A stretch of DNA of 64,000 nucleotides from Pristiophorus japonicus (lineage: Eukaryota), in assembly GCF_044704955.1 (NCBI RefSeq), contig NC_091977.1, forward strand, positions 505,610,001-505,674,000, written 5' to 3'. The position numbers and the translations under genes are program-made. Numbering within the stretch: position 1 is the first letter of the stretch; each line of letters opens with the position of its first letter. Positions 18,869 through 64,000 of this stretch are shown here, one piece after another. The notes under the pieces are model-generated. The model made no database searches. It was given only the letters and a program-made list of their open reading frames with translations, and was not told the origin of the DNA.

Positions 18869-19126
18869 AAGACTCAACCAGTCACAGTAGGACAACTGGT
18901 TGACGGAGCTGCTAATGCTGAACAGCAACCCAGCCATGTTATTTTCAATCACTAAGCTGAGCAGATAGAGTTAAAATTTGAATAGAACGATTTCACTACT
19001 ACTGTCCGAGCTGGGATTAATCCCACCTCTATAATAAAGATAGATATACATATGAGTTACAAAACAGAAGCAGCCTGTGTTGGCGTTTACCCACTCTGTT
19101 CCAATCGCTTAAAATACTTTTCCTTC

Positions 19127-22100
19127 TGTCGTGTATGTATGCTTGGGTTTACTAGCCACCAGGTGGCGCCACTGTCGGAGGTCACTGGGCTGTGCGCACG
19201 TGTGTGCGGCCTAGGTATAAAAGGCCAGCCATCTTGTAATGTAATCACTTTGAGCCCTAATAAAGTAGAGCCAGGTTTGTACCTGTTCAGAGTTTACAGT
19301 ATTCAGTCTATTGAGTTATTGCATACACAACATTTAGCGATGAGGTAACAAGAATCTTTGCATGCAAAAATGAGCACAATTGGAATTCTGGAGTGATTAG
19401 TGGAGGGAGAAGATTGGGCAGACTTTGTAGCCCGCTTGAATCAGTACTTCGTGGCCAACAAAATGGAGAAAGAGGCAGACACAGTTTGGCGCTGGGCGGT
19501 CCTCCTCACGGTTTGTGGTACGAAAATCTATGGACTCAAAGAATTTCCTCTCACTCTTAAGTCCAACAGACAAGGACTATGAAACATTGTGTGCTCTGGT
19601 ACGTGACCATCTCAAACCAGATGAAGGCATCATCATCTCAAGATATCGAAGTCCGTCCCCAGAACCGTCGTGTTCCAAGAAACTGGTCACCAGTCGTGAT
19701 TCTGCTGAACATCTGAACAACCTGGAAGAGTTTCTACATCGTCTGGACAAAGTGGGACTCAGACTGAAACGCTCAAAGTGCATCTTCATGGCACCTGAAG
19801 TCGAATTCCTGGGCAGTAAAATTGCTGCTAACGGTATCAGGCCGATGGACTCGAAAACCAAAGCTATCAAAAATGCACCCAAGCCTCAAAATATGACAGA
19901 GCTGCTTTCCTTCCTCGGTCTACTCAACTACTTCGGTAATTTCTTACCTAGATTGAGCACCTTATTAGAGCCACTGCACATGCTGTTAAGAAAAGGCGAC
20001 AACTGGGTTTGAGGTGCATCTCAAAATAGAGCTTTTGAGAAAGTTACTAATCTGCTTTGCTGCTGGTACATTATGATTCGTGTAAGCGTCTAGTATTGGC
20101 CTGTGATGCTTCATCATATGGAGTGCTCCAACAAGCTAATGATTCGGGCAAATTACAACCTGTTGCATATGCTTCAAAAAGTTTGTCAAAGGCAGAAAGA
20201 AGCTACAGCATGGTAGAGAAAGAAGCACTAGCCTGTGTGTATGGGGTTAAAAAGATGCATCAGTACCTGTTTGGTCTTCGGTTTGAACTGGAAACAGATC
20301 ACAAGCCACTCATTTCACTGTTTTCGGAAAACAAAGATATCAAAACCAATGCATCAACCCATATCCAGAGGTGCGCGCTGACAATATCACTCATCATATT
20401 ATGTCACTCATCATAGACATGGCACTGACAATTGTGCCAATGCATTGAGCCGTCTGCCGCTGCTCACACTGGAGGTGGAAATGCCATAACCGGCAGACCT
20501 ACTGTTAGTCATGGATGCTTTTGAAAGTGAAGGAACCCTAGTTATGGCCCAACAAGTTAAGACCTGGATCAGCCAGGACCCGATATTATTGGTTGTGAAA
20601 TGTTGTATCCTTAGTGGTGATTGGTCTGCCATACCCAAGCAAATGTGTGAGGAGACCAAACCTTACATCCGTTGCAAAGACGAACTATCCATTCAGTCAT
20701 TGTATACTGTGGGGTAATTGTGTTGTTATGTCTAAGAAAGACAGAGAGAAATTTGTGCATGATCTACATTGCACGCATCCTGGTATTGTCATGATGAAAG
20801 CTTTTGCCAGGTCTCATGTATGGTGGCTTGGAATTGACTCTGATCTGGAATCATGTGTGCATCAGTGCAACACTTGCATGCAGCTTAGTAATGCACCAGT
20901 GGAATCGCCACTGAGTCTGTGGTCATGGCATTCTAAACCATGGTCCAGGATCCACATTGACTTTGCAGGTCCCTTCCTGGGAAAGATGTTCTTTGTTGTG
21001 GTGGATGCTTATTCCAAGTGGCTAGAGTGTACAATCATGTCATCCAGCATATCCACAGCTACCAGTGAGAGCCTTCATGTCATGTTTGCTATGCATGGTC
21101 TGCCTGACATCATCGTAAGCGACAATGGATCTTGCTTCACCAGGATGGAGTTTCAAGAGTTCTTGAAACTCAATGGTATCAAACATGTGAGGTCAGCACC
21201 ATTCAAACCCGTATCCAATGGACATGCAGTGCAGTCCAAACCATCAAGCAGAGTATGAAACGTGTAACTCAAGGTTCACTGCAAACTCGCTTGTCATGCA
21301 TATTGCTTAGTTACAGGACAAGACCCCATACGCTTACCGGAGTCTCCCCTGCTGAACTATTGATGGAGAGGTCTCAAGACCAGGCTCTCTCTTGTCCACC
21401 CTGATTTGAATAATCATGTCGAATACAGACATCAAAGTCAGCAAGGGTATCATGATCGCGCTACTGTGTCACGCGATATTTCTATCAATGATCCTGTGTA
21501 TGTACTGAATTATGGTCAAGGTCCCAAATGGATCGCCGGCACTGTTATGGCCAAGGAAAGTAAAAGAGTGTTTATCGTTAAGCTCAAGAATGGGCAGACA
21601 TGCAAGAAACATGTCGATCAGATAAAGCTGCGGCACACGGATGAACCGGAACAGTCTGAGGAGGACACAGTGACCAACCAACCTACCCTCAGTCATCAGA
21701 GGACGCCACTGTCATCAATGAATCTGGACTTTCAATCACTGACATGGTCAATGAATCTGGACTTTCAATCCCTGATGTGGTCATTGCCACTCCCATCAGA
21801 TCGGCTACCCAGCCCCCAGTCATAACAGATTCAGAATGCTTGCCCAAGGCTGGAGTTGAACTGAGACATTCAACTCAGGAGCAGAAAGCCTCGGACCATC
21901 ACAATTTGTAAAAAGACTGTTACTAATATCTTAAAGGGGGATATTGTCATGTATGTATGCTTGGATTTACTAGCCACCAGGTGGCGCCACTGTCGGAGTT
22001 CATTGGGCTGTGCGCATGTGTGTGCGGCCCAGGTATAAAAGGTCAGCCATCTTGTAATGTAATCACTTTGGGTCCTAATAAAGTAGAGCCAGGTTTGTAC

Positions 22101-31031: not shown

Positions 31032-34000
31032 TGTTTTGTATGTAAACTTTATAATAGTGTAAGACTTGCCACCAAGGGGCACACCTGTTGGAGACCCAAG
31101 GGTCATCTGCACACCTTGTGCAAGCAAGTATAAAAGGTTGTCTGCCATGCTGCTTCTTCACTTTGGAGTTTGATTAAAGAGACTAAGGTCACATCAGTTT
31201 GAGCGTACAACATATAGTCTTGTGGAGTTATTCTGAACATAACAATTGGTGACGAGTAACAGATCACGAACTTTCACGCGGTTATGGCTGCGTTGGTATT
31301 CTTGAGAGATTTGTTGAGGGTGACAATTGGGAAGCCTTCATTGAGCATCTTGACCAGTACTTCGTGGCCAATGAGCTGGATACAGACAGTAACGCGGTCA
31401 AGCGCAGGACGATTCTCCTCACCGTTGTGGGTCTACGATATATGGCCTCATTAAAAATCTGCTAGCACCGACAAAACCAATGGATAAGACATATGCAGAG
31501 TTGTGTACGCTGGTTCGGGGACACCTCAAGCCAAAGGAGAGCATCTTAATGGCCAGGTATCGCTTTTATACGCACCATTGCTCCGAGGGCCAGGACGTAG
31601 CGAGTTATATTGCCGACCTAAGATGCCTTGCAGGACCATGCGAATTTGCTGGATTTTTGGGGGAAATGTTGCAGGACTTTATCGTGCTTGGAATCAGCCA
31701 CGAGGTCATTCTTCGCAAATTGCTGTCTGCCGTATCCCTAGATCTGAGCAAGGCCATCACAATAGCCCAGGCTTTCATGTCCTAAGCAGATATGTTCTCA
31801 GCGTCGAAGCTCATCGGCAAGTACTGTGCATAAAATAACACCTTTAGCAGGCAGAACTGTACATGGCAGGACCTAGACGCTTGCAGAGGCCAGACCTAGG
31901 ATGCCTGAGAGTCCGTCATGGGGCGTGAATGTGAATCCATTAATACCATGTTGCCGCTGCAGGGGTAATCATAGAGCCCATCAATGTCGATTCAAGCACT
32001 ACGTGTGCAAATGCTGCGGAACAATGGGGCACCTCCAGCGAATGTGTAAACGTGCTGCGACTCACCACGTGGCAGAGTCAGCAAAAGATGTCCGATCCGG
32101 CATGGATCACGCTGAACGAGTAAGAGAGGCAACTCAACCCAAGGTTGAAGAGGAAATGTATGGGGTACACACCTTCACCACCAAAAGCCCTCCGTTAATG
32201 TTGAAAGTTAAATTAAATGGCACTCCAGTTTCCATGGAATTGGACACAGGGGCAAGTCAGTCAATTATGAGTCAGAAGGCTTTTGAGAAACTGTGGGGCA
32301 ACAAGGCACAAAGGCCAAAACTAAGCCTGATTCAAACAAAGCTGCGCACTTACACCAAAGAGCTCATACCAGTCATTGGCAGTGCGGCAGTGAGGGTATC
32401 GTACGATGTAGCTGTGCATGATTTATAACTATGGATTGTGCCAGGCGATGGCCCAACGCTGTTCGGCAGAAGCTGGCTAGGAAAGATCCAATGGAACTGG
32501 GACGACATCAAAGCACTGTCTTCGGTGGATGACGCCTCGTGCGCTCAAGTGCTAAACAAATTTCCATTGCTATTTGAGCCAGGCATCGGCAACTTCACAG
32601 GCGCCAAAGTGCAGATTCATCAAGTCCCTGATGCACGGCCCAGTCATCACAAGGCCAGAGCGATTCCATATGTGATGTGGGAGAAAGTCGAGATCGAACT
32701 GGACAGACTTCAACGAGAGGGAATTATATCGCCAGTCGAGTTTGAGTGGGCCAATCCAATTGCTCCGGTGTTGAAAAGCGATGGCACGGTCAGAATCTGC
32801 GGAGACTACAAAGTAACGATCAACCGAGTCTCGTTACAGGACCAGTACCCGCTACCCAAAGCGGAGGACCTGTTTGCAACGTTAGCAGGAGTGAAGTCGT
32901 TCACCAAGCTGGATCTAACCTCGACTTACATGACACAGGAGCTGGCTGAATCTTCGAAAAGATTGGTGTGCATCAACACGCACAAAGGACTGTTCATATA
33001 CCACAGATGCCCTTTTGGGATTCGCTCGGCTGCTGCCATCTTCCGGAGGAACATAGAGAGTCTGCTGAAATCTGTTCCGTGCACCGTTGTGTTTCAAGAC
33101 GACATCCTGATCACTGGTCGTGACACCACCGAACACCTGCACAATCTGGAAGAGACTCTAAAGCGACTGGACAGAGTGGGACTCAGGCTGAAACACTCCA
33201 AGTGTGTTTTCCTGGCGCCAGTGGTCGAATTTTGGGGGAGAAAGATTGCGACAGATGGCATCAGACCCATGGACTCGAAGACGGAGGCCGTCAAGAATGC
33301 ACCCAGACCACAGAGTTCGTTCCTGGGACTCAACTATTTTGGTAACTTTCTACCCGGGTTGAGCACTTTGCTGGAACCTTTGCATTTATTGCTACATAAG
33401 GGTGACAACTGAGTTTGGGGTAAATCTCAAGGGACAGCCTTCGTTAAGGCCAGAAACCTGTTATGTTCTAACAAGTTACTTGTAGCTTGTGATGCATCTT
33501 CGTACGGGGTTGGTTATGTGTTACGGCAAGCCAATGTGTCAGGCAAACTGCAACCAGTTGCATATGCATCCAGAAGTTTATCTAAGGCTGAAAGAGCCTA
33601 TAGTATGGTTGAGAAAGAAGCATTGGCATGCGTATATGGGGTTAAGAAAATGAACCAATACCTATTTGGACTGCGGTTCGAGCTCGAAACCGACCACAAA
33701 CCGCTCTTTTCGCTGTTTTCAGAAAGCAAAGGTATTAACACCAATGCTTCGGCCCACATCCAAAGATGGGCACTAACATTATCTGCATATGACTATGTAA
33801 TCCACCACAGACCAGGCTCTGAAAACTGTGTTACCATTGCCCACCACCGGGGTGGAAATGGCGCAACCCGCAGACTTGCTTCTTGTAATGGATGTTTTTG
33901 AGAGTGAGGGGTCACCTGTCATGGCTTGCCAGATCAGGACCTGGACTAGCCAGGACCCTGTGCTATCACTAGTAAAAAACTGCATCCTTAATGGGAGCCG

Positions 34001-35507
34001 GTTGGCTGTTCCCGGGAAATGCAAGACGAAATTAAGCCGTTTCACCAACGCAAGGATGAAATGTCCATTCAATCGGATTGTCTCCTATGGGGGAGTCATG
34101 TGGTTTTGCCAAAAAAAGGTAGGGAAACGTTTATACGCGACCTACACAGTACCCACCCAGGCATAGCCATGATGAAGGCTATCGCCAGGTCACACGTTTG
34201 GTGGCCCAGCATTGACTCGGAATTGGAGTCATGCGTACACCAATGTAACATTTGCTCACAGTTGAGCAATGCACCAAGGGAGGCCCCACTGAGTCTGTGG
34301 TCATGGCCCTCCAAACCGTGGTCAAGGGTTCACCAAGATTTCACTGGCCCCTTTCTAGAAAAGATGTTCCTAGTAGCAGTGGATGCTTACTCTAAATGGA
34401 TTGAATGTGCAATAATGTCATCATGTAACTCCACTGCCCCACTGAAAGCCTCCGGGCCAAGTTCGCCACCCATGGTTTGCCCGACGTTCTTGTTACTGAC
34501 AATGGACTATGTTTCACCAGCTCGGAATTCAATGAGTTCATGACCCGCAATGGCATCAAACATATCAGGTCTGCTGTGTTTAAGACCGCATCCAATGGTC
34601 AAGCGGAACGGGCAGTCCAAACTATCAAGCAGAGCTTGAAACGGGTGACGGATGGTTCCCTGCAGACCCGGTTATCTCGGGTTCGGCTCAGCTACTGGAC
34701 GCGACACACTCGCTCACCGGGGTTCCCCCTGCAGAATTGCTAATGAAGAGAGCACTCAAAACCAGGCTCTCCTTAGTCCACCCGGATCTCAATGATCATG
34801 TAGAAACCCGGCGTTACCGGCATAACATGTATCACCGTCACGCAGCTGCATCGCGTGACATTGAGGTTAATGACCCTGTATTTGTTGTTAACTACGGTCA
34901 TGGTCCCAAATGGGTTGCTGGCACTGTTTTAGCCAATGAGAGGAAGAGAGTATTTGTTGTTAAACTTCTGAATGGACAAACGTGCAGAAAGCATTTGGAT
35001 CAGACCAAACTACGATTAACCGACAACCAAGAACAGTTTGAAGAGGACATTACCATCATTGATCCACCAACACACACCCAAGCAGCAATTGATCTCACTG
35101 TTAATCATGAGGATGAACCCACCATGCCCGACAGTCCAATCAGACCAGCCGGGCTGCAGTGCAGCAATGATCCGACCAACTCACCCATGCCAGGACTTCA
35201 ACTCAGGCAATCAACCCGGGAACAAAGAGCCCCTGATTGCCTCAACTTGTAAATAACTTGTATCTAAGACTTTGAGGGGGGGTGGAGGGGGAGTGATGTT
35301 TGTATGTAAACTTTTCATAGTGTAAGACATGCTACCAGGGGGCGCACCTATTGGAGATCCAAGGGTCACCTGCACACCTCGTGCAAGCAAGTATAAAAGG
35401 TTGTCTGCCATGCTGCTTCTTCACTCTGGAGTTTGATTAAAGAGACTAAGGTCACATCACTTTGAGCGTACAACATACAGTCTTGTGGAGTTATTCTGAG
35501 CATAACA
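31032..35507 (+). mobile_element. Full-length but decayed Ty3/Gypsy (Mag-like) LTR retrotransposon
   Basis: LTRs at 31032-31244 and 35297-35507, perfect TSD CTGGT, PBS tggtgacgag (tRNA-Ser-like), G-rich PPT. Confidence 0.96.
31284..35252 (+). pseudogene. gag-pol remnant (Gag with two CCHC knuckles, PR, RT, RNase H, IN)
   Basis: [27 protein letters not shown]; LDTGAS; RICGDYK, CPFGI, FQDD; ACDAS; H..H..C..C, VTDNG and SNGQAER. Multiple stops and frameshifts. Confidence 0.93.
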
Positions 35508-35537
35508 CTGGTGACCATTGCCATTGTCATTTTGCAG

Positions 35538-36573
35538 AAAAAGCTGGCACACAATCGGAGCGAACAGCGATGGACCACCCAATCGCTTGGTGGTCCACCC
35601 AATAATTATCCTCTGACTGATCTGGAGGAACGCCTTAATTGGTGCCCATGGCAGATCAACTACCCATGCGGGTGCTGATCTCATGGTTGGAACTGAGGGT
35701 AAGTCCTGCCAAATCCCCGGGCTGGGTTGGAGTCATGTGAGTCTGTGGACTCAGGTTCAGGTAATGTCATGCAGTGTCTCTCGACGACATATAATGCAGT
35801 AGTGGTGGTCCTTCAAATAAGCCTGCGCTATGTGACCGTACTCATGTCACCCTGCCCCCTCCCCTGCTGCCAACCACTCGTCCGTTGTTTTCTAATTTGC
35901 AGATGAAGAGTTGCATATGCCTCATCACCACATGCAAGGCTCCACCTCAGCCCAGTGTGTGTGGGTCCAAGAGGAAGAGGAAGGTGAGGGGTGTACTGAG
36001 GACCCATGGGAGGAACAACATCCTCAAGCTGTTGTTGGCGGGGGGGGGGGGGGGGGGAGGTGTTGGGGGAGGAGTCGGCACATGTTTTAGCTGCAGCCAC
36101 AACTTCCTCGGAGGAAGCCACATTTCCAGGTTTCATCGCTTCTGAGGCAGCCGCACCCCCATGGTTGAACCCCACATGCTGTCTCTGCGGAGGTTGAGTC
36201 GGCAAAGCCGGTCTGCTGAAAGACAGGCAGACGCTAACCTGGACATGGTGGGACTGTCAAGGGAGAGCATCGAACTGGATCGAGAACTCCTCCAGGCACT
36301 TTCGGCAACATCGCCGCACAATCTGCGACACAATCTGCGGACATGTCACAGATGGTTGCTGCAATCCGGGGGAACACCGAGGCTGTCAATGCCCTGCAGC
36401 AATTGATTGTCTCGACCTTTGGCACCGCAGTCCCCAGTGTCATACCACCCAGACCAACAGCACCTGTGAGTTGGGAGGCAGAACAAGAGCCTTCCGACTC
36501 AGAAGCCGGGCCTTCCATACCCCGAGATTCTCCAGGGAATCCACACATGGAGTCTCCATTGTCTTTGCCCTGA
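35538..36573 (+). pseudogene. Harbinger Myb/SANT gene exons 2 (35538-35698) and 3 (35903-~36573)
   Basis: Acceptor ttttgcag, then KKLAHNRSEQR...GGPP..PLTDLEER and donor GG|gtaagt. A second acceptor tttgcag precedes an acidic/coiled-coil-like region. Confidence 0.7.
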
Positions 36574-46054: not shown

Positions 46055-47238
46055 AGAAGATATTGCAAAGTCTCTGTTTAAAGAATGGACTCAGTCGAGA
46101 ATATTTCATGTACTTTATGGGATTTTTCTGAGGGTATTTTTCCCTGTGATGGCATCACCCTGTGCAGAGAGACCGCATGGCAGTTGGCTGTGACAAAAGA
46201 ACTGTCAGTCATCCAGAATGTATGGGTTCGCCCGCCAGTCCTAGCTAAAGGAAGGGGGCCATATGCAAAAGCATTTCTCACCTCCATCTCAGAAGAGAAG
46301 CAGAACAATGATCCCACTGGCCTGGCCAGCCAAAGAGGAGCCAGTTTTTTTTCCCCCAACACAAAGACCGAGATATGTCCCAGACTCAGGGCCATTAGTT
46401 CAATACACATGGGTCTAATGGCCCATCACTGACTAAGCATCGGAGTGCTTAGAAACAAAAGGGTTTTAATGATTGGCGGCAAAGATAGGGGTAGCAAGAC
46501 TCCTATAAAGATAGACTCTTTTCCACCATTTCGCTACACCCCGGCCCCACCTCCCCCCCACCCCACCCCCCACCCCCAGCCACCTTCTCCCTCTCGCTCT
46601 CGACGTAACAAGAGGTAACAGAGGAGGAAGCCGCAGTTGTGCAGAAGAAGCCGCTGAGATAGAGAACCGCATACCCCTCACAGGGTACGGCCTCCAGGCA
46701 GTGACTTCCCACAGCTGAGCTGAGCACTTGAGACCGACTGTTTGTGGTGGTGAGCATGGTCGCGAGTGTCCCAAGCCAGTAACCAGATATCCCAGGCGAG
46801 CTGGGTGAGGTGTAAGGGCTCAGGGTTTTCTCAGAAGTGAAGCTTTTCAGGGCTATTCGGGGGAGGAAGCTTTGTTTGGTTTAGCCAGGCGAAGGGGCTG
46901 CAACTGGGTAATTCGTTGGTAGGGGTGGAGTTAGAATCTACCATAGCAACAAGGGAATTACTGCATGTTACCGGTCCTCAGTTTTGTACTGTATGTCTGT
47001 TGTTTGTAACCTGGATCTTACTCTCCACAGAGACAGTGATTTTCGTTTAGTAGTGCATGTTTTAGCCAGTGTGTGTTCGACTAAATAAATACAAGTACGA
47101 TTTTTCACCGAAGCATTGCAGTCCGTGACTTATTCCATTTACACTCTGAATAATAATCCCCGGGTATAGAATTTTCGTAAGGCAGGGGCGATTGGAACTG
47201 TCCATCTAGCCATTGGGCTAGGATCAAAACCACTTGCA
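46055..47238 (+). repeat. ERV 5' LTR (1184 bp)
   Basis: Direct repeat of 53458-54634; ends CA; TATAAA at 46504 and AATAAA at 47084. Confidence 0.95.
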
Positions 47239-47243
47239 TCTCT

Positions 47244-47261
47244 TGGCGACCACAAAGGGAC
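47244..47261 (+). promoter_or_regulatory. Primer-binding site, tRNA-Arg
   Basis: TGGCGACCACAAAGGGAC, 17/18 complementary to the recalled 3' end of vertebrate tRNA-Arg(CCG/TCG) (GTCCCTTCGTGGTCGCCA), 5 nt after the LTR. Confidence 0.8.
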
Positions 47262-47287
47262 CTGGGTTAAAGGAGTGTGAATCAGTC

Positions 47288-47925
47288 ATGGACAACGCTG
47301 CTGGCGAAAGATCCCAAATGGAGGAAGGGATTTCTTCATATATATTTAAGAAGGTTAACATCACTAAGAAATGGGTGCTAGGCTTGTTGCGTGCTGAGCG
47401 TCCAGTGGACGCAGCGGCAGAATGGACGGAGGGCAAGGAGCATAGGCGCAGCACTGAAAAGGTGATATGGCTCGTCTGTCGACAAAGACAAGTCCAACTG
47501 CTCGATGAGCAGGTTGGTAAGTTAAGAGGCAGAGCTCAGGGAGTCCAAGGCACAGTCAGATGCAGAGGCAGTAGTAGGGAGCAGGTTATGCACGGAGCTA
47601 AGGGATGAGAAGCTGGGAAGAATAAGCCAGGAGAAAACATTCCATAACCATAAGGAGTTCCTTCAATTCCAGGTAACTGAGGGAGAACACTCACTTGTTG
47701 AGTGAGGTAAAGGTGCTGGAAGAGCAGTTGAAGTATATTCAAGTGGCATGCAGATTCGCCAGCACTAGAGGGTTTGATACGGTAATCATGGTCCTTGCCA
47801 GGAGCAGATCTGGAATTTGACCGATGGTCTATCTAAGGCCAAAGGGATGGTCTGCTTGGTAGCTCCGGGAATTGCCTGGGTAGATAAGGAGGACTGTGAG
47901 GCAGAGGGGGACACTCGACCACTGC
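47288..47925 (+). pseudogene. gag: ERV gag N-terminal remnant
   Basis: First ATG after the PBS; helical/coiled-coil-like text with frameshifts; ends at the deletion junction with pol. Assigned by position. Confidence 0.65.
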
Positions 47926-50546
47926 CAGAAGTACAGGAGCTACCCGCCCTGACCATGGTAACGGGGGTAAGATTCTTCCTGGGACTCACAATGTACTGCA
48001 GGGATTTCATCGAGGACTATGCTGCTACGGCAGCCCATCTACTCCGGCTCCTCCACAAGGGAGTGGGATGAGGACTGCATGGCATCTTTTAGTCGTCTGA
48101 AGAGAGGTCTGCAGACCGCACTGGCTTTCGGAGCGATTGATGGGGGAGAGGAGTTCTTTTTGGAGGTAGCTGCCACAGGGGACAGTTTGAGCACAGTTCT
48201 GCTCCAGAAGCGGCATGGTAAGCTGAAGCCTGTGGTATACTCATCAGGAATCCTCACAGATGTAGAGAGGGGGTACTCCAATTGTGAGAGGCACCTGCTT
48301 GCCACACATTGGGCCGTGAAGAGATCACAAATCTTCACGGGGGCGTCCCAATAACTCTCTTAACCCATCATACGCCGACTCAGATGCTTCTGGATGGGAG
48401 GATAAAGGATGGCACGGTGAGCAATGCACGCTTGACTTTATTGCTCTTTCAGACGAATGTGTGTGTGAAAGATCTCTGTGAGTCGAAGCTTGCCGCAAAT
48501 TTGATCTACCCAGGGGTGACTCACACACATGTTCTGTTGAAGAAGTATGGGATGTGGACATAGGGTTTCGGGCTGGAATCCATCCCATGGGCCGCGAGAT
48601 CTGTGGACGGGTCCAGTACAGTGGTGGCAGGGGAGCGACTCACTGGATGCGGGATTTTTGACCCAAAGGTCGGCATTGTCAAGGCCATTAAACTCCAGAG
48701 CACCATGAGCGCCCAGCATGCTGAACTGTCGGCGGTGGTGTTTGTGGTTACCCACCCCGAAGAGTTCCCTACACGATTTGCTCGGACAGCATGTTCACTT
48801 GCAATTCGTGTGCAGAATATTTAGCTATTTGGTCTCGCGGATTCAAATCTGCAGACGGGAAACCCCTAGCATTGTTGCGACAGATCATAACATCGATAGG
48901 AACCCAGAGGGATTTCTATATCGACAAAGTCAAGGCCCATTCTAAGACAGAACCCCGTGGGGAAGGCAATCAGCAGGCTGACGTACTGGGCAAAGAAGGT
49001 GCTCGAACTGGCAAGTTTTGGGATCCATATGGGTCGAGTCCAGCAGCAACGATCAGAGACAGAGGTGGGACACAAGGGAGTGCAGGGGTAGCATTGGCCC
49101 CAGACCTAAAGATGGTCCAGGCACAGGATCCCGTCCTAAAGACTGTTCTGGAGACGCTGGCTAAGGGAGTTAAGGTAGAGGGTCCATATGGAGTGGCAGG
49201 CATTACGGTAAAGGAAGGGATGGTTTTCAGAGGGGAACAGTGGGTAATTCCTCAGCAGCACCAGAGAGAATTCCTTCAGTTGGCCCACGAGGGTCCAGGA
49301 GCGGGGCACCCCGGGCCGGAGACCACCTGGCAACTGGTGGAACAGGCAGGGTGGTGGCTGCAACTGAGGGAGGACGTCCGCGACATCTACGCGGATTGCT
49401 TGGTGTGTGCTGCAAACAACCCTGACCCCCAGAAAAGAAAGGTATCCATGGGACACACTAGTAGAGTGGAGGGACCATGGCAGTCCATACAGGTCGATTT
49501 ATATCGGACTGCTGCCCACTGCGCAGGGGGGTTACAAGTACTGCCTGGTTCTGGTCGATGTATTCTCTAAATGGGTGGAAGCCTTCCCATGCTGCAAAGC
49601 CACAGCTTTGGGGACCGCAAGGATTCTAGTGAGAGAAGTGTTCTCTAGGTGGGGGCTACCACAGTATGTGGAGTTCGATCAGGGGAGTCACTTCACAGTG
49701 GCAGCCATGCAGGCAACTCTGAAGATGCTAGGTGTAGAGGGTAAATGACACGTCGCTCAAAACCCGCAGTCATTGGGGATTGTGGAGCGGATGAATAGGA
49801 CCATCAAGGAAAGATTACGGAAGGAGACGGAAGACTCGCCTAGAAAATGGGTGGAGGTCGTGCCGTTAGTTCTAATGGGGGTCCAAGCCAGCCCGTCTAG
49901 AAGCACAGGTTATTCCCCACATGAGCTCGTGACTGGCAGGGTCATGAGAACGCCCAGCCATGTACTGGCACCGGTTCTCACAGAAGGTCAGTTGAGAGAG
50001 GTGAACCGGGAAAGGTTCGTTAAGAATCTGTTTGAGCATCTCAAACAGATCCATTGGCAGGCTGCCAGTAACATGGGGAAGCAACATTGTAGAAATCATT
50101 TATTGCTTGAGCCTTAGAAGCACCACGAGTGGAAAGTTGGAGATCAAGTAATGGTCAGAAACTTCACTAGGGTAGGGACTTTTGAACCGCTATACATGGG
50201 ACCGTACAGTAGCGTGGATAAGGCAAGTCCGATGGTATATGCGGTCAAAATGCCCTGACGCACTAAGTGGTTCCATATCAATCAGTGCCAGCTTTTCAAC
50301 CCTGGGGAAAGAGCCGACACGAGGAGGAAACAGCCGGGAGTGGTGAGCTGCACTGCAGGTGTGGGTCTCCAGCCCATAATCTGGGACTGTGAGGAGCCCA
50401 CAGAGGGACCAGCCATTCCACCTGTGGGGGCAGGAGTGAGAAGGAGTGCCAGGATCCCACGGTCCAGGATGCTGTGGACGCCTCCTTACACACCGGTGAA
50501 CGAAGGAAACCGGGGTCATAAGAGGCCCAGGACTGAGGAGACCTAG
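47926..50546 (+). pseudogene. pol: ERV pol remnant: RT thumb, tether, RNase H, integrase
   Basis: VRFFLGLTMYCRDFI; tether FFLEVAATG...PVVYSS...CERHLLA; RNase H VDGSS, SAQHAEL, SDS, KVKAH, GNQQAD; IN HEGPGAGH..CLVC, WQSIQVD, FDQGSHF, GIVERMN, MGPY. Confidence 0.93.
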
Positions 50547-50747
50547 TGTGGCTGCCCGGAGACGGGTGGCGCTGTACATAACTTCTTTCTTTCCTATCTG
50601 TTGCCTTAGCTTGTCTATATAGTTTGTGATTTAAATATATTCCGGTTTCCAAAGGTAATCATGTGTAGTTGCGTCTGGAAAGGTGAGGCATCACCCCAAG
50701 GACAACGTTGCATTTTGTGTGTTTTTCAGGGAATGCCTAAGAACAGG

Positions 50748-53069
50748 ATGAAGTCAGCCATATGAATCCTGATCACCATGATTGAAGCCAGCACGAGTCG
50801 CAGGGGCGACACGGAGGAATCGGTTGTCTTCGGCTGTACCGGCGGAGATGGACCGACCGTGACCACCGGAGGTGGCTCGAAGGATGGGGCGAGCATCTCT
50901 CTCCATGAGGGAAGATGGCCGGGATGGCTGGGGTCGAATTCCACCCAGTATTCCAGCCATGATAAGTTCACCTATGGTGAAACGTCCATTTCATGCCCGA
51001 GAATAGGGGTTACCATCTCCCAGGTTAGGGTAACGGAGGGTAAACGGGTGTGCTTTAGCTGTAGGGACACATTCCACTGGGAAGGTGGTGGTGGCTCAGG
51101 AAACTGAGCACAGACACACGGGACCGGAGAGCTGACTGGGAAAGACTAAGTAACAACATGTACCGGACGACCACGGGTTCTCAGGGAGGAGTGAATGTGT
51201 GTTGGGATAAGTGGTGGGAATCCAAGGACGGGATTTTGTGTGTGTATGTGGGGGTCGGAAAAGATCTGCCCAATGGGTGTGTCGATCGCGTTTAGCAGGC
51301 GATGGCAGACGCCAGGGGTGGGATTGGTTGGGATCGGAATGTGGACTCCTGTGTGATCCCAAAACCCCTGAACACCATCAATGCCACAGAGGTCATCTCA
51401 TATACCAGGAAGCCCCCGCTCAGAGCCCTGACGGCACAGACGACTGTAAATAGGTGTCCCACCACCACCAGGGGTCCAAGGAATGGGTTGGTGTTAATGC
51501 CTACTGACAAAGTTTTGTTTTAGAATGTGCACTACTCTATGGCATCCATGATCCTGAACCTGACTGAAGTCCACCTGCCTGTGTGGTGCCCAAAGATAAA
51601 GAAGCTTTATGAAGCTCTGTTAAAAGTGATCTTTCAGGAATTTTATGAACTGGACTATGGAAATGTAGATAAAGACGGCTTTATGATCTGAATGTTGGGA
51701 ATAGTGTGGGGTCCGGCAGGCAGAGCAGAGGAACTTGGAACGATGTAGCCACAGCGTTCAGTACAGGAACGGGTATTGTTAATAGAATGGATGATTACAA
51801 CTCCAGATGCAGATCACTGGATTAAAGAACCAACTGCGTAAGATTCTAGGGGAAGAGAATACAGTGATGGGTTCAGAGCTTTATGAGGATCAGGCAATGA
51901 CCGTTCATTTAAAAGGAGGTCATTGCAGAGCTGGAGAGGCATGCTAAAACTGTTAATGATTTGATACGGGAGGACAGGAACGCCTCGGAGCAGGCTGCAC
52001 GGAATGAGGTGTGTGTGTTGTATGGAGCATGGTTGCTGGGCGAGGGCCACAGTAACCTGGAGGACCTGAGGCAAGGTCGCGTTCCTTCAGGGTTAAGCAA
52101 CAAGCATCTCGCCGCACTGCACCGGTATAGCAATTCGTTGAGCCCGTGCCAGCTTCATTTGGCCTCTGAAGCCTACCCTGTCCCTGTAGATTGCGGGCGG
52201 TCCAACCATACAGTGATGGGAATTGTAGTGAGGATTCCAGTATGAGCGGGTCATCCCAGCCAGCACCGGTATACAGGGTTTAGAATATTATGGTAATTCG
52301 TGGATGAGTGCACGTTCGTTTAAAAGCGGTCCCGCCGTATGTCATAAAGTGGGAGCATGCTATGACAGGCACTGACCTCTCCGGATGCCAGAGCCGGGGT
52401 GCACACGTAATACTGTGTCCCCAGCACTTGACTGCTTTTGCTCGATCAGAATATGGGTTTGCTTCTGCAGGTGCGGAACCTATCAATTTCACCATGGAAG
52501 TGATGGCACCAGATCACATACCTCCACAGGTAGCATGTGTTGGGAGTGGGACATACTGTTTCACCACAAGTGCACTCCACTACCAGTACAGCCAGGACAT
52601 GTGGTGTCCGGTGAGCGACAGAAGTTTTTGTTTCAAACCCAAGGCTGAGGTTCAAGTGGCACAAGAGCGAGTTACCCCCATCCCCGAACCCTCGACCATT
52701 CACCTCACTGTGAACAACAGCTTCACGCATCGCCAGGACTATGTGGAGCATTTCGGGTACCCGATTCCTTTTCTGCCGGAACACCTCACTGAGATAATAA
52801 AGACCGTGAAGCTCTCCCAGAAACATTTTTGCACTTTAGAGCAAAAGATAGTAGAAGTGGGGGACGAGATCAAGGGGATTATCTCGCCACCGTGGTGGGA
52901 CATCGATCTGAGTGTAGAGATTCCTCCCTGGATCTGCGTCTGTTCCCATGCATTGGTTATCATACAATTGTTGCTTGTAGCCTACTTGTTTTACATCAGC
53001 TGCAGGCGACGGAGCCAGATGCTCCGAGCGCGGTGGCAAGGGGTGTTAGATCGACCCAGAGAGGTGTAA
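50748..53069 (+). pseudogene. env: ERV env remnant (~770 codons; F-protein/foamy-TM-like fusogen)
   Basis: Splice acceptor gtttttcag at 50729; short signal-peptide-like start MKSAI*ILITMIEAS; RQSR cleavage site at 51718; heptad region; Cys-rich beta region; TM anchor ALVIIQLLLVAYLFYI followed by RRR. Confidence 0.85.
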
Positions 53070-53457
53070 TTGATTTATGTTGATGATGGTTTCTCCCTGC
53101 TAAAATTTGTAATGTACCAAAGTTCTGTAAGCAAGTGTATTATATTCTGGTTAGAGTTTTACACTCTATATTGCGCGATGTGCGCTATTGTGATTTTTGT
53201 AATGTGTTTCCACCTGTCAATGCTGTACTGTGTGATGTGCGCGGTGACCTATTTTTTGGTAACTTCTTGTGAAATGGAACCCAACCGTTTGAATGTTAAG
53301 AGGCCGTTTTCGCTGATGTCTTGACTCTGTCGAAGGGGGACAGTTCCAGGGTTTTAAAATGAAAAATCAGGGGAACAGCTTCACTTGTGGGAGACTTTGG
53401 CCTTTGCTCCCTCGTCAAGTGATCTTTTATTGAAAGAAAAAGCATCAAATTGGGGAC

Positions 53458-54634
53458 TGAAGAGATTGCAAAGTCTCTGTTTAAAGAATGGACTCAGTCG
53501 AGAATATTTCATGTACTTTATGGGATTTTTCTGAGGGTATTTTTCCCTGTGATGGGATCACCCTGTGCAGAGAGACCGCATGGCAGTTGGCTGTGACAAA
53601 AGAACTGTCAGTCATCCAGAATGTACGGGTTCGCCCGCCAGTCCTAGCTAAAGGAAGGGGGCCATATGCAAAAGCATTTCTCACCTCCATCTCAGAAGTG
53701 AAGCAGAACAATGATCCCACTAGCCTGGCCAGCCAAAGAGGAGCCAGCTTTTTTTTCCTAACACAAAGACCGAGATATGTCCCAGACTCAGGGCCATTAG
53801 TTCAATACACATGGGTCTAATGGCCCATCACTGACTAAGCACCGGAGTGCTTAGAGGCAAAAGGGTTTTAATGATTGACGGCAAAGATAGGGGTAGCAAG
53901 ACTCCTATAAAGATAGACTCTTTTCCACCATTTCATTACACCCCGGCGCCACCTCCTCCCCCCACCCCCCCACTCCCAGCCGCCTTCTCCCTCTCGCTCT
54001 CGACGTAACAAGAAGTACCAGAGGAGGAAGCCGCAGCTCTGCAGAAGAAGCCGCTGAGATAGAGAACCGCATACCCCTCACAGGGTACGGCCTCCAGGCA
54101 GTGACTTCCCACAGCTGAGCTGAGCGATCGAGACCGACTGTGTGTGGTGGTGAGCATGGTCGCGAGTGTCCCAAGCCGGTAACCAGATATCCCAGGCGAG
54201 CTGGGTGAGGTGTAAGGGCTCAGAGTTTTCTCATAAGTGAAGCTTTTCGGGGCTATTCTGGGGAGGAAGCTTTGTTTGGTTTAGCCAGGCAAAGGGGCTG
54301 CGATAGGGTAATTCATTGGTCGGGGTGGAGTTAGAATCCACCATAGCAACAAGGGAATTACTGCATGTTATCGGTCCTCAGTTTTGTACTGTATGTATGT
54401 TGTTTGTAACCTGGATCTTACTCTCCACAGAGACAGTGATTTTCGTTTAGTAGTGCATGTTTTAGCCAGTGTTCGACTAAATAAATATAAGTACGATTTT
54501 TCACCGAAGCATTGCAGTCCGTGACTTATTACATTTATACTCTGAATAATAATCCCCGGGTATAGAATTTTCGTAAGGCAGGGGCGATTGGAACTGTTCA
54601 TCTAGCAATTGGGCTAGGATCAAAACTGCTTACA
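53458..54634 (+). repeat. ERV 3' LTR (1177 bp)
   Basis: TG...CA termini, preceded by the purine-rich gaaagaaaaagcatcaaattggggac. Confidence 0.95.
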
Positions 54635-58470: not shown

Positions 58471-61400
58471 TGTTATGTATGTAAACATTGTAACTATGTA
58501 AGACTTGCCACCAGAGGGCGCAACTGTTGGAGGCCCAAGGGTCACCTGCACACCTTGTGCAAGGGAGTATAAAAGGTTGTCTGCCATGCTGCTTAGGCAC
58601 TCTGCAGTTGTATTAAAGAGACTAAGGTCACATCCATTTTAACTCACAGTACTCAGTCTTGTGGAGTTCTTCCATACTTAACAATTGGCGATGAGTAACA
58701 GATTACTAACTTTCACGCGGTCATGGCTGCCATTGGTATTTTAGAGAGATTTGTAGAGGGTAATGTTTGGGAAGTCTTCGTTGAGCGTCTTGACTAGTAC
58801 TTCATGGCCAACGAGCTGGATGGGGATGATAAAGCGATCAAGCGCAGGGTGATTCTCCTCACCGTGTGTGGGTCCACAATATACGGCCACATCAAGAATC
58901 TGCTACCACCGGAGAAACAAGCGGAGACGATATATACAGAGTTGTGTATGCTGGTTTGGAACCATCTCAATCTGAAGGAGAGCGTCTTAATGGCCAGGTA
59001 TCGCTTCTATGTGCAACACCGCTCCGAGGGTCAGGACGTGGTGAGTTATGTCGCCGACCTGAGACGCCGTGCGGGAACGTGCGAATTTGCTGGATTTTTG
59101 GAGGAAATGCTGCGGGACTTTTTTGTGCTTGGCATTGGCCACGAGGTCATTCTTTGCAAGCTGCTGTCCGTCGAATCGCTAGACCTGAGCAAGGCCATCA
59201 CAATAGCCCAAGCATTCATATCCACGAGCGATAATCCCAGACAGGTATCTTCCCAGCATCGAAGCTCACCGGCAAGTACTGTGCATAAAATAACGTCACT
59301 AGCAGGCAGAACTGCATATGACAGGGCCTACACGTCTGCAGCTGCAAGACCTAGGATGACTCAGAGTCCGCCATCGGGTGTGAATGCAAATCCATTAGCA
59401 CCATGTTGGCACTGCGGGGGTAATCATAGAGCCCAAGAATGTTGATTCAAGCACTACATGTGCAAAGGCTGCGAGACAATGGGGCACCTCTAGCGAATGT
59501 GCAGGAGTGCTGCAACTCACCATGTGGCAGTCGGCAGAGAATGATCGATCTGGCGCAAATCACGCAGAACATACAAAAGAAGCAACTCAACCCAAGGAAG
59601 AAGTATATGGAGTACACATCTTCACCACCAAGAGCCTTCCTATCATGCTGAAAGTCAAATTGAATGGTATTCCGGTATCAATGGAGTTGGACATAGAGGC
59701 GAGTCAGTCAATTATGAGCCAGAAGGCTTTTGAGAAACTGCGGGACAACAATGCACAAAGGCCCAAACTGAGCCCAATTCAGACAAAGCTATGCACCTAT
59801 ACCAAAGAGCTCATACCAGTCATTGGCAGCGTATCGTATCATTAAGGTATCGTACGATGGAGCTGTGCATGATTTATCACTGTGGATTGTACCAGGTGAT
59901 GGCCCAACGCTATTCGGCAGAAGCTGGCTGGGAAAGATTCGATGGAACTGGGACGACATCAAAGCACTATCTTCAGTGGATGATGCCTCGTGCACCCAAG
60001 TGGTGAGCAAGTTTCCGGCGGTATTTGAACCAGGCATCAGTAACTTCACAGGTGCCAAGGTGCAGATCCATCTCGTCCCCGATGCAAGGCCCATTCATCA
60101 CAAGGCTCGAGCGGTTCCAAATATGATGAAGGAGAAAGTGGAGATCGAACTGGACAGACTTCAACGAGAGGGAATCATATCGCCAGTCGAGTTCAATGAG
60201 TGGGCCAGTCTGATTGTTCCGGTGTTGAAAAGCGATGGCACGGTCAGAATCTGCGGAGACTACAAGGTAACGATCAACCAAGTCTCGTTACAAGACCAGT
60301 ACCCGCTACCCAAGGTGGATGACCTGTTCGCAATGTTAGCGGGGGCAGAAAGTCGTTCACCAATTTGGACCTAACCTCCGCCTACATGACACAGTAGCTG
60401 GCTGAATCTTCGAAAAGATTGACGTGCATCAACACACACAAAGGACTGTTTATATACCACAGATGCTCTTTTGGGCTTCACTCGGCTGTTGCCATCTTCC
60501 AGATGAACATAGAGAGTCTGCTGAAATCAGTTCCGTGCACCATTGTGTTTCAAAACGACATCCTGATCACCGGTCGTGATACCACCAAACAGCTGCACAA
60601 TCTGGAAGAGGTTCTAAGTCGACTAGACAGAGTGGGACTCAGGCTGAAATGCTCCAAGTGTGTTTTCCTGGCGCCAGAGGTTGAATTTTGGGGGAGAAAG
60701 CTTGCGGCAAATGGCATCAGACCCATGGATTCAAAGACAGAGACCATCAAGAATGCACCCAGACCACAGAATGTGATGGAGCTGTGTTCGTTCCTGGGAC
60801 TCCTCAACTATTTTGATAACTTTCTACCCGGGTTAAGCACTTTGCTGGAACCATTGCACATGTTGCTGCATAAGGGTGACAACCGGGTTTGGGGTAAATC
60901 TCAAGAGACAGCCTTTGAGAAGGTCAGGAACCTACTTTGTTCTAATAAGTTACTTGTACCGTATGACCCGTGTAAACGATTAGTGCTAGTTTGTGATGCA
61001 TCTTCGTACAGGGTCGGCTGTGTGTTACAGCAAACCAATGTATCGGGCAGACTTCAACCGGTTGCATATGTGTCTAGAAGTCTGTCTAAGGCTGAAAGAG
61101 CCTACAGTATGATCGAGAAAGAGGCGTTAGCATGCGTATATGAGGTTAAGAAAATGCACCAATACCTATTTGGACTTGGGTTTGAGCTTGAAACCGACCA
61201 CAAAACGCTCATTTCGCTGTTTTCAAAAAGCAAAGGTATAAACACCAATGCTTCGTCCCGCATCCAAAGATGGGCACTAACATTGTCCGCTCATGACTAT
61301 GTTATCTGCCAAAGACCAGGCACGAAGAACTGTGCTGATGCCCTCAGTCGGCTACCATTGTCCACTACCGGGATGGAAATGGCGCAACCCGCAGACTTGC

Positions 61401-61609
61401 TTCTGGTCATGGATGCTTTTGAGAGCGAGGGGTCCCCCGTCACTGCTCGCCAGATCAGGACCTGGCCCAGCCAGGATCCTGTGCTATCACTTGTAAAAAG
61501 TTGCGTCCTCAATGGGAGCTGGTTAGCCGTTCCAAGGGAAATGCAAGATGAAATTAAGCTGTTTTACCGACACAAAGATGAAATGTCTATCCAGTCGGAT
61601 TGTCTCTTA

Positions 61610-62285
61610 GAAACATACAAATTTACAGCGCAGAAGGAGGCCATTTCGGCCCATCGTGTCCACGCCAGCCGACAAAAAGTCGCATGGACCTCGGTCAGCA
61701 GCCCTGAAGGTTACATATAAACCGATGAACAATGAACAATGACGGAAAGGTAAAGAGCACCCAACCCAACCAGTCCACCTCACACAACTGCGATACCCCT
61801 GACACTGAAACATTCTACACACCATCCCAACCAGAGCCATGTGATCTTCTGGGAGAGGCAAAAACCAGATAAAAACCCAGGCCAATTTAGGGGGAAAAGA
61901 TCTGGGAAAATTCTTCTTCGACCCATCCAGGTGATCGAAACTAGTCGAGGAGATCACCCTGACCGTATTCGATTCCCTGCAGTACTTACAATTATATCTG
62001 TGCCGGCCAACAAGAGGTTATCCAGTCTAACCCCAATTACCAGCTTTAGGTCCGTAACCCTGCAGGTTTCAGCACTCTAAGTGCCCATCCAACCATCTCT
62101 TAAAAGTGGTGAGGGTTTCTGCATCCACCAATCTTCCAGGCAGCGAGTTCCAGATCCCCAGAACCTTCTGCATGAAGAAGCCCCACCCTCAAATCCTCTC
62201 TGAACCTTCCCGATGACCATCCCAAAACTTGCTCCTCGCGGCCCTGACCCTGTATTCTCTTGTCCCACTGCCTTGGAGATACACC
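61610..62285 (-). mobile_element. CR1-type 3' end with long 3' UTR, inserted in Gypsy pol
   Basis: Minus-strand FFMQKVLGIWNSLPGRLVDAETLTTFKRWLD and the terminal gggccgaaatggcctccttctgcgctgtaaatttg. Confidence 0.75.
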
Positions 62286-63126
62286 AGCGACTGCCGGAAA
62301 TGGCAGTTTCCTGCCTTCCAACTGGTCCTCTCCACCCCCACCCTCCCCCTGTACGGAAATAGGGGAGGATTGGAGACAGCAAAACACCTTGCCGGGGGGG
62401 GTGGGGGGGGCAGCTTTGCGGACCATCAGTAAGGCTAGGGACGACGACTGTTGAGGGCAAACCTTAATGGGAAGTTGCTTGAACGTTGAATGCTGGCAGT
62501 CCCAGTGGAGATTCATGTCGCAAAACCTATATTTATAGAGAGTTATCCCCAGTGTCCTGGGACACTCAGTCCTGTTAGACACACACACACACACACACAG
62601 TCAGGGCTGGGACATTTATTATTAAAAAATTCAGTTTTCGTATTGCGAGGCTGCAACAAACTAATAAATCCACTCCCGCATCAGATCACCTTATTATATA
62701 TCCTCAACCATTAAAACAAATGTTTAAATTAATATGTCTACGTGCTCATCTTTCTTCCCTATTCCCTCCACTTCCCCCTTCTCTACTTCAATCCTATTTT
62801 AAAATCTAATCCCGTAACTAACGCACCCTTATTCTAAAGGTTCTATTTAACGCAATTTCCTTGACCCGAACTTTCTTTTGTTTCTTGGGTTCAAATCTCC
62901 AATTTGGAGGTGAGACGCACATCTTTGAAGCTCGCCTCCGATCGATTGAGCCGAGCTCTAAAGATTGACGGTCTCGCCGGTGACAACATGTCAAGGTGCG
63001 GAAGGCCGGTGGATGCCAATAACTGGGCCCAGGGGGATAACCAACACCTCACACCACAGGCTCACACGCTCTGGTCTTCCCTTAAAAAACAAAGAGAGTG
63101 CTTCAATCTCAGTATTGGCCGTCTTA

Positions 63127-63490
63127 GGGAGGGAGGGAGGGGAAATGGGAGGAGGAAGGGAGGAGAAATGGGGGGTAGGAAGGGAGGGGAAATGGGGGGA
63201 GGGAAGGAGGGCAAATGGGGGGGAGGAAGGGAGGGGAAATGGAGGGGGGAGGGGAAATGGAGGGGGAGGGGAAATGAGGGAGGGAGGGAGGGAAGGGAAA
63301 TTGGGGAAGGGAGGGAGGGGAAATGGGGGGAGAAAGGGAGGGGAATTGGAGGGAGGGAGGGAGGGGAAATGGGAGGAGGAAGGGAGGAGAACTGGGGGGC
63401 AAGAAGGGAGGGAGAGGAAATGGGGGGAGGGAGGGAGGGGAAATGGGGGAAGGGAAGGAGGGGAAATGGGGGAAGGGAGGGGAAATGGGG
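63127..63490 (+). repeat. Polypurine G-rich minisatellite (GGGAGGGAGGGGAAAT-like units)
   Basis: ~360 bp almost entirely G/A with dense G3+ runs. Confidence 0.95.
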
Positions 63491-64000
63491 TAATCGTGTG
63501 GTTTTGCCAAAAAAAGGCAGGGAAACATTTGTACGTGACCTACACAATACCCACCCAGGCATAGTCATGATGAAGGCTATAGCTAGGTCGCATGTTTGGT
63601 GGCCCGGCATTGACTCGTACTTAGAGTCATGCGTACACCAGTGCAACACATGCTCACAATTGAGCAATGCACCAAGGGAGGCTCCATTGAGTCTGTGGTC
63701 ATGGCCCTTCAAACCATGGTCCAGGATCCACGTAGATTTTGCTGGCCCCTTTCTTGGAAAGATGTTTTTAGTTGTAGTGGACGCTTACTCTAAATAGATT
63801 GAATGCATAATCATGTCATCCAGCACATCCAATGCCACCATTGAAAGCCCGGACCCATGGCTTGCCCGACGTCCTTGTCAGTGACAATGTACCGTGTTTC
63901 ACCAGCTCGAAATTCAACGAGTTTATGACCCGCAATGACATCAAGCATTTCAGGTCTGCCCAATTTAAGCCTGCATCCAACGGTCAAGCGGAACAGACAG

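Follow-up and report, generated by a model that had tools for sequence, protein, structure and literature searches.

Does the broken envelope gene at this locus encode an immunoglobulin (Ig)-like domain, and what would such a domain do in a retroviral envelope protein (Env)? The locus lies in the window, the whole 64,000-nucleotide stretch analyzed here (positions 505610001-505674000 of one contig, NC_091977.1, in the 5.9 Gb genome of Pristiophorus japonicus), inside an endogenous retrovirus (ERV) bounded by long terminal repeats (LTRs). The reading we favor is that this high-copy shark ERV carries a conserved, likely Ig domain near the N-terminus of its Env, and that this domain is the probable attachment head on an F-like fusion core. 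In the window, the gene is interrupted by frameshifts near 51064, 51234, and 51308 and also by stop codons. Its parts are arranged as follows (window coordinates).

50748..53069, + strand: env gene, broken in the window copy by frameshifts and stops
50748..50993, + strand: signal peptide (assigned by eye) and pre-Ig segment of ~65 residues with one Cys and one N-glycan site
50994..51299, + strand: likely Ig-fold (V/I-set-like) domain; B-strand Cys at 51060, C-strand Trp at 51092, F-strand Cys at 51243
51300..51454, + strand: short beta segment and Pro/Thr-rich stalk
51455..51729, + strand: F2-like subunit, ending at a furin-type site (RQSR in the window, RQRR or RQKR in open copies)
51730..52997, + strand: F1-like subunit with fusion peptide, heptad region, Cys-rich region, and transmembrane helix (~52947-52997)

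The order in Env is signal peptide, variable head, Pro/Thr-rich stalk, and F core. In one subfamily (B), ~35 of 150 scored matches have open frames of at least 790 aa by hand count, and the head therefore belongs to a complete Env.

The Ig-like domain in sister copies

The initial annotation had joined reading frames across two frameshifts and proposed an Ig-like domain at 51021-51260. The fragments were indeed present there, scattered over different frames, and the true extent of the domain was somewhat wider, about 50994-51299. We compared the window with 29 further copies from the same genome (30 loci of 40 matches). It had been required beforehand that the two cysteines and the tryptophan share one frame, and the three codon positions did so in 23 of the 29 copies. 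Natural sister copies thus give the Cys-Trp-Cys pattern on one chain with no repair, and the proposed dependence on frameshift repair falls away. The stretch between the two cysteines was free of stops and read C, W, C in 12/29 copies, and seven were open through into the F2-like segment. The codons themselves were retained in 28 (B-strand Cys), 29 (C-strand Trp), and 26 (F-strand Cys) of the 29 copies. The tryptophan lay 11 residues past the first cysteine. In all 23 one-frame copies, the cysteines were 61 codons apart; in V/I-set domains the spacing between the B- and F-strand cysteines is about 55-75, a range that includes this value.

The F-strand motif was also read differently in the open copies. 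The initial annotation had given it as DFVC, in a frame that these copies do not use; they read EEGIYVC (subfamily A), a better fit to the D-x-G-x-Y-x-C pattern. The corresponding motif was DQGIYLC in subfamily B and DEGIYMC in skate proteins (labelled Rhinoraja longicauda). G, Y, and C were invariant in 10/10 aligned rows, and the first position was D in subfamily B, skate, P0002, and P0009 and E in subfamily A and P0008.

We then considered the fold. Four methods agreed on the Ig clan, with an alignment covering the whole domain, and a beta-sandwich is the predicted fold. Besides the canonical cysteines, the domain holds an extra B/E-strand pair; on copy L019, the predicted disulfides were C105-C166 (canonical B-F) and C102-C152 (B-E cross-strand). 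The best match to a solved sequence was CRTAM, a weak one at 21 bits. Several results weigh against an Ig head. The best Pfam score of the domain, 24.7 bits (E 3.4e-5), stayed below the cut-off of 30 for Ig_3, no V-set or I-set match was listed in the Pfam scan, the structure models had low to medium confidence, and no one test reaches a decisive threshold for the Ig fold. No Ig chain came up when the PDB was searched with profiles of the whole N-terminal alignments, and Foldseek matched no viral structure at E<=0.001. Matches to snake toxin and CD177 were rejected as weak (E 0.017-0.25) and spanning just 35-50 residues. Identity with the F core's own domain II was likewise rejected, the Cys-rich F1 region being separate and downstream. 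The view that an Ig-like add-on precedes the F2-like segment is supported by the sister copies and by the profile and model results, with the sub-threshold Pfam score and low-to-medium models as its weak side.

Selection was examined in 16 pairs of natural copies (four of subfamily A by four of subfamily B). The proportion of nonsynonymous differences (pN) in the Ig-like domain was 0.21-0.24, and that of synonymous differences (pS) was 0.86-0.90, which is saturated. The domain is under purifying selection. Identity between the subfamilies was 61-67/99 residues in the Ig-like domain, 47-52/83 in the F2-like part, 42-45/65 in the pre-Ig segment, and 23-30 of about 51 in the stalk, the least conserved part; the domain is as conserved as the F2-like part and more so than the stalk. 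It shared 52/99 residues with skate, and the Cys-Trp-Cys pattern was kept in subfamily B, skate, and further relatives.

The fusion core and the proposed role of the head

All parts of a class Ib fusogen were present in Env; the furin site was computed, and the signal peptide, F2, fusion peptide, heptads, Cys-rich region, and transmembrane segment were assigned by eye. Direct comparison of the core with Pfam Fusion_gly and solved F proteins gave no match. The best Fusion_gly match in the genome was the env of another ERV family (L159; E 1.7e-6, below the cut-off, and E 0.007 for henipavirus F), and the core profile A6 of the present Env family matched this L159 env at 58 bits. The fusion core may thus be indirectly linked to paramyxovirus F as a distant relative, the connection to Fusion_gly running via L159.

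Other env families of the genome carry other heads. In the L159/L160 family (L159:2840-3490, - strand; L160:1053-2862, + strand), the F2/fusion-peptide region matches Fusion_gly and henipavirus F, and the head is of another type with a Thr-rich stalk. Family C (L055-L066, e.g., G000:C15:100270622-100271776; P0015, P0017) is a separate high-copy env family, with 104 matches scored; it has the F core in common, and its head is shorter, rich in Cys, and marked by a V-C-x-x-C motif that also occurs in a protein labelled Mustelus. The motif gives the family C head a look similar to that of the Ig head, but profile comparison gave 2% probability and cross-scores stayed at <2 bits, which does not support homology. 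Neither the family C head nor the L159 head scored against the Ig profile. Scans of viral and metagenome contigs yielded no confirmed relatives.

An attachment role is suggested by the position of the domain, by head exchange on one core, and, by analogy, by the modular class Ib model (PMC11468914). From position and analogy, we infer that the Ig head binds a receptor. It may bind a conserved cell-surface protein, perhaps another Ig-superfamily adhesion molecule, and once furin has cut Env, the head would remain attached to the F2-like subunit. The cleaved trimer would then be triggered by binding or by endosomal uptake, freeing the fusion peptide, and the F1-like part would fuse the membranes, so that one protein would perform both attachment and fusion. 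Release of the fusion peptide upon binding or uptake is known for the coronavirus S1 head. Such release has also been proposed for the receptor-binding domain (RBD) of foamy virus (PMC11468914).

Alternatively, the Ig fold could be real but serve structurally, as a cap or spacer shielding and stabilizing the pre-fusion trimer, attachment being left to the pre-Ig segment, glycans, or the F core. Conservation on a par with that of the F2 core fits a structural part, the additional disulfides and a Trp-rich surface suggest packing on neighbors, and the headless Loki-Bsp Env indicates that F-type cores can work without a head. However, heads vary between families on one core, as is typical of receptor-binding modules (PMC11468914), and we regard a purely structural role as unlikely.

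Origin of the domain

The initial annotation had called the Ig fold captured, and the nearest cellular Ig domain was therefore sought. Among 1.84 billion representatives, no cellular protein matched the domain at E<=0.001; the 14 hits were all apparent env relatives or chimeric gene models with env. A word search with the domain profile scored 8000 candidates and brought up no cellular protein at E<=10, its six hits being family members, and a search with the longer protein gave no match. In a partial host sample of 92 own-genome Ig loci (the best 32 of 34 C2-set, 30 of 150 I-set, and 30 of 150 V-set matches), the top score was 8.8 bits against 9.8 for reversed controls. A CADM-like shark gene scored ~5 bits per exon, no higher than reversed controls. 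No cellular donor stood out in these searches, and none rose above controls. Capture on the SIRP-like model would call for a cellular gene as the clear best match beyond the viral family; here no cellular gene held that place. The host genes sampled were a partial set, and V domains of the CADM type are divided between two exons, so an old capture from a host gene may have escaped these searches.

Two observations concern host genes. The host gene read as CADM-like (L090:220-400 and from ~3649; G000:C11:205050600-205060599) has a V domain over two exons. In addition, in the public gene models P0008 and P0004, parts of this family's env are joined to host genes coding for a C2H2 zinc-finger protein and a Niban-like protein; these fusions could be annotation chimeras or exonized env.

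The resemblance to CRTAM is a lead only. In one doubtful scenario, an ancient fish retrovirus lineage would have captured an Ig domain of the nectin/CADM/CRTAM type and joined it to a paramyxovirus-like fusogen, a single gene would then serve both attachment and fusion, docking would occur by adhesion mimicry, and sister lineages in this genome would swap heads on the same F core. If true, the gain of receptor-binding modules by class Ib fusogens could be followed here in a natural series.

Still less probable is that the domain serves as an immune modulator or decoy, mimicking an adhesion or regulatory receptor (CRTAM, CADM) on virions or infected cells. CRTAM is indeed the best solved-sequence match, and the SIRP-derived IgV of a mammalian Env keeps CD47-contact residues (bioRxiv 10.1101/2024.03.17.585361). 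However, a mimic is expected to stay near its host model, whereas the CRTAM match is weak and the CADM-like gene does not exceed reversed controls. A constrained role, in binding or in structure, also fits the strong conservation better than a fast-evolving immune decoy does. Finally, it is very improbable that a Cys-rich viral beta domain is Ig-like by convergence only: every score is sub-threshold, the models are weak, and no cellular relative was found among the 1.84 billion representatives, but four methods give the same clan, the alignment covers the whole domain, and the motifs are correct in order and spacing, as is the D-x-G-x-Y-x-C pattern.

The element and related systems

The element that carries env in the window has the following further features.

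46056..47238, + strand: 5' LTR, aligned to the 3' LTR with 1128/1175 bases identical (96.0%)
47244..47261, + strand: primer-binding site of tRNA-Arg(TCG) type, 17/18 bases complementary to the tRNA 3' end including CCA
47288..47930, + strand: gag 5' stub, followed by a large internal deletion
47930..50300, + strand: pol remainder in broken frames (end of reverse transcriptase [RT], tether/RNase H-like, RNase H, integrase)
53433..53458, + strand: purine-rich tract (from sequence) preceding the 3' LTR
53459..54634, + strand: 3' LTR, paired with the 5' LTR

The deletion takes the rest of gag, the protease, and most of RT; fuller copies (L031-L033) have gag with a zinc knuckle, a protease-like frame, and RT. 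The gag-to-env distance was ~3450 bases both in the window (47250-50700) and in copy G000:C10:93137007-93140461, and 5.7-9.4 kb in three fuller copies. The short distance common to the window and the C10 copy suggests a deletion derivative that spread with env kept. If the rate is 2.2e-10 per site per year, as PMC4422223 assumes for sharks, the LTR identity would correspond to an insertion age of roughly 90 million years, a figure that depends strongly on the rate. Just 5' of the env ATG, a pyrimidine-rich tract ending in CAG (50710-50730) resembles an env splice acceptor. The window also contains several LINE-like repeat copies (19081-21665, 31032-35554, and 58471-64000) and a tandem array with a 23-24 base unit (63077-63506).

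The pol remainder matched Pfam RT_RNaseH_2 (E 1e-16), RNase_H (2e-7), Integrase_H2C2 (2e-14), and rve (3e-12). The RT of the fuller copies matched RVT_1 (E 6e-28), with foamy virus as the best PDB match (173 bits), followed by murine leukemia virus (MLV; 141) and Ty3 (108). The tRNA-Arg(tcg) gene that the primer-binding site matched (17/18 bases) belongs to this shark genome itself, and the primer of snakehead retrovirus (SnRV) is also tRNA-Arg. Read by eye against the alignment that accompanies PMC7947760, the RT motifs were nearer to SnRV than to Loki, and the Loki-type TWxRCPFGY/TVTPFGY and IYVDD motifs were not seen. SnRV has the motifs LDISNGFWS, QYTWT-x-L-x-QGFH, and QYVD in common with the present RT, as do SnRV-like ERVs such as the elephant shark CmiERV lineage I (PMC4422223, PMC4977317, PMC12193657). 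SnRV-like ERVs are already known from elephant shark (PMC4422223) and thus occur in Chondrichthyes, as here. On these motifs, read by eye and without a tree, the element looks SnRV-like rather than Loki-like. The passages of the same three papers describe no Env fold or Ig head for the SnRV clade.

Lokiretroviruses (PMC7947760) are similar in Env, with a signal peptide, F2-like segment, R-X-K/R-R site, fusion peptide, coiled coil, and transmembrane segment whose motifs align by eye, and in Pol, with a dual RNase H/tether. Both the tether plus RNase H and an F-like Env are present here, a combination not exclusive to Loki. Unlike the present Env, that of Loki-Bsp, the one Loki Env compared, is without an N-terminal head, and cartilaginous fish are not among the hosts in the passages of PMC7947760. 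Passages of the Loki paper and of an errantivirus survey (10.1101/2023.10.26.564294) do not mention immunoglobulin. Our full-text search found no account of an Ig head on an F-like Env; it covered subscription journals thinly, and bioRxiv supplements, including that of the Hotzel Env survey, were outside it.

Foamy virus Env, also class Ib, has an F-like core with its own receptor-binding module, as proposed here; its RBD is a novel fold inside the surface subunit (PMC11468914), whereas the present head is N-terminal, Ig-like, and distinct from the F core's Ig-fold domain II. The F-like scaffold accepts modules at the N-terminus or between subunits; on this type of core, foamy Env and coronavirus spike bear a module of their own, whereas paramyxovirus F depends on a second protein for attachment (PMC11468914). 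A retroviral Env with an F-like core and an Ig-like head would add another way of combining attachment and fusion in one protein, and sister families with other heads in one genome would make module gain and exchange traceable on a tree.

The closest parallels to the head are in the Envs described by Hotzel (bioRxiv 10.1101/2024.03.17.585361): SIRP-like IgV RBDs in Env-Dbi and Env-Per, and IgV-like RBD-C in MLV, feline leukemia virus, and Env-Pb(1). As here, the Ig V-type domain is N-terminal; Env-Dbi has the canonical B-F disulfide, and the domain is read as a receptor-binding module. The same source describes uptake of a SIRP-derived IgV by an alpharetrovirus-like Env and states the host-gene origin of the gammaretroviral IgV-like RBD as an open question. 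Those Envs are gamma-type, orthoretroviral, and mammalian, with a SIRP donor found by BLAST, whereas the present Env has an F-like core, comes from cartilaginous fish, and has no donor found. That an Env of unrelated type also bears an Ig head with canonical motifs suggests repeated recruitment of Ig folds by retroviruses. Ig-like receptor-binding heads are thus known on gamma-type Env, and what is new here is the same idea on an F-type fusogen.
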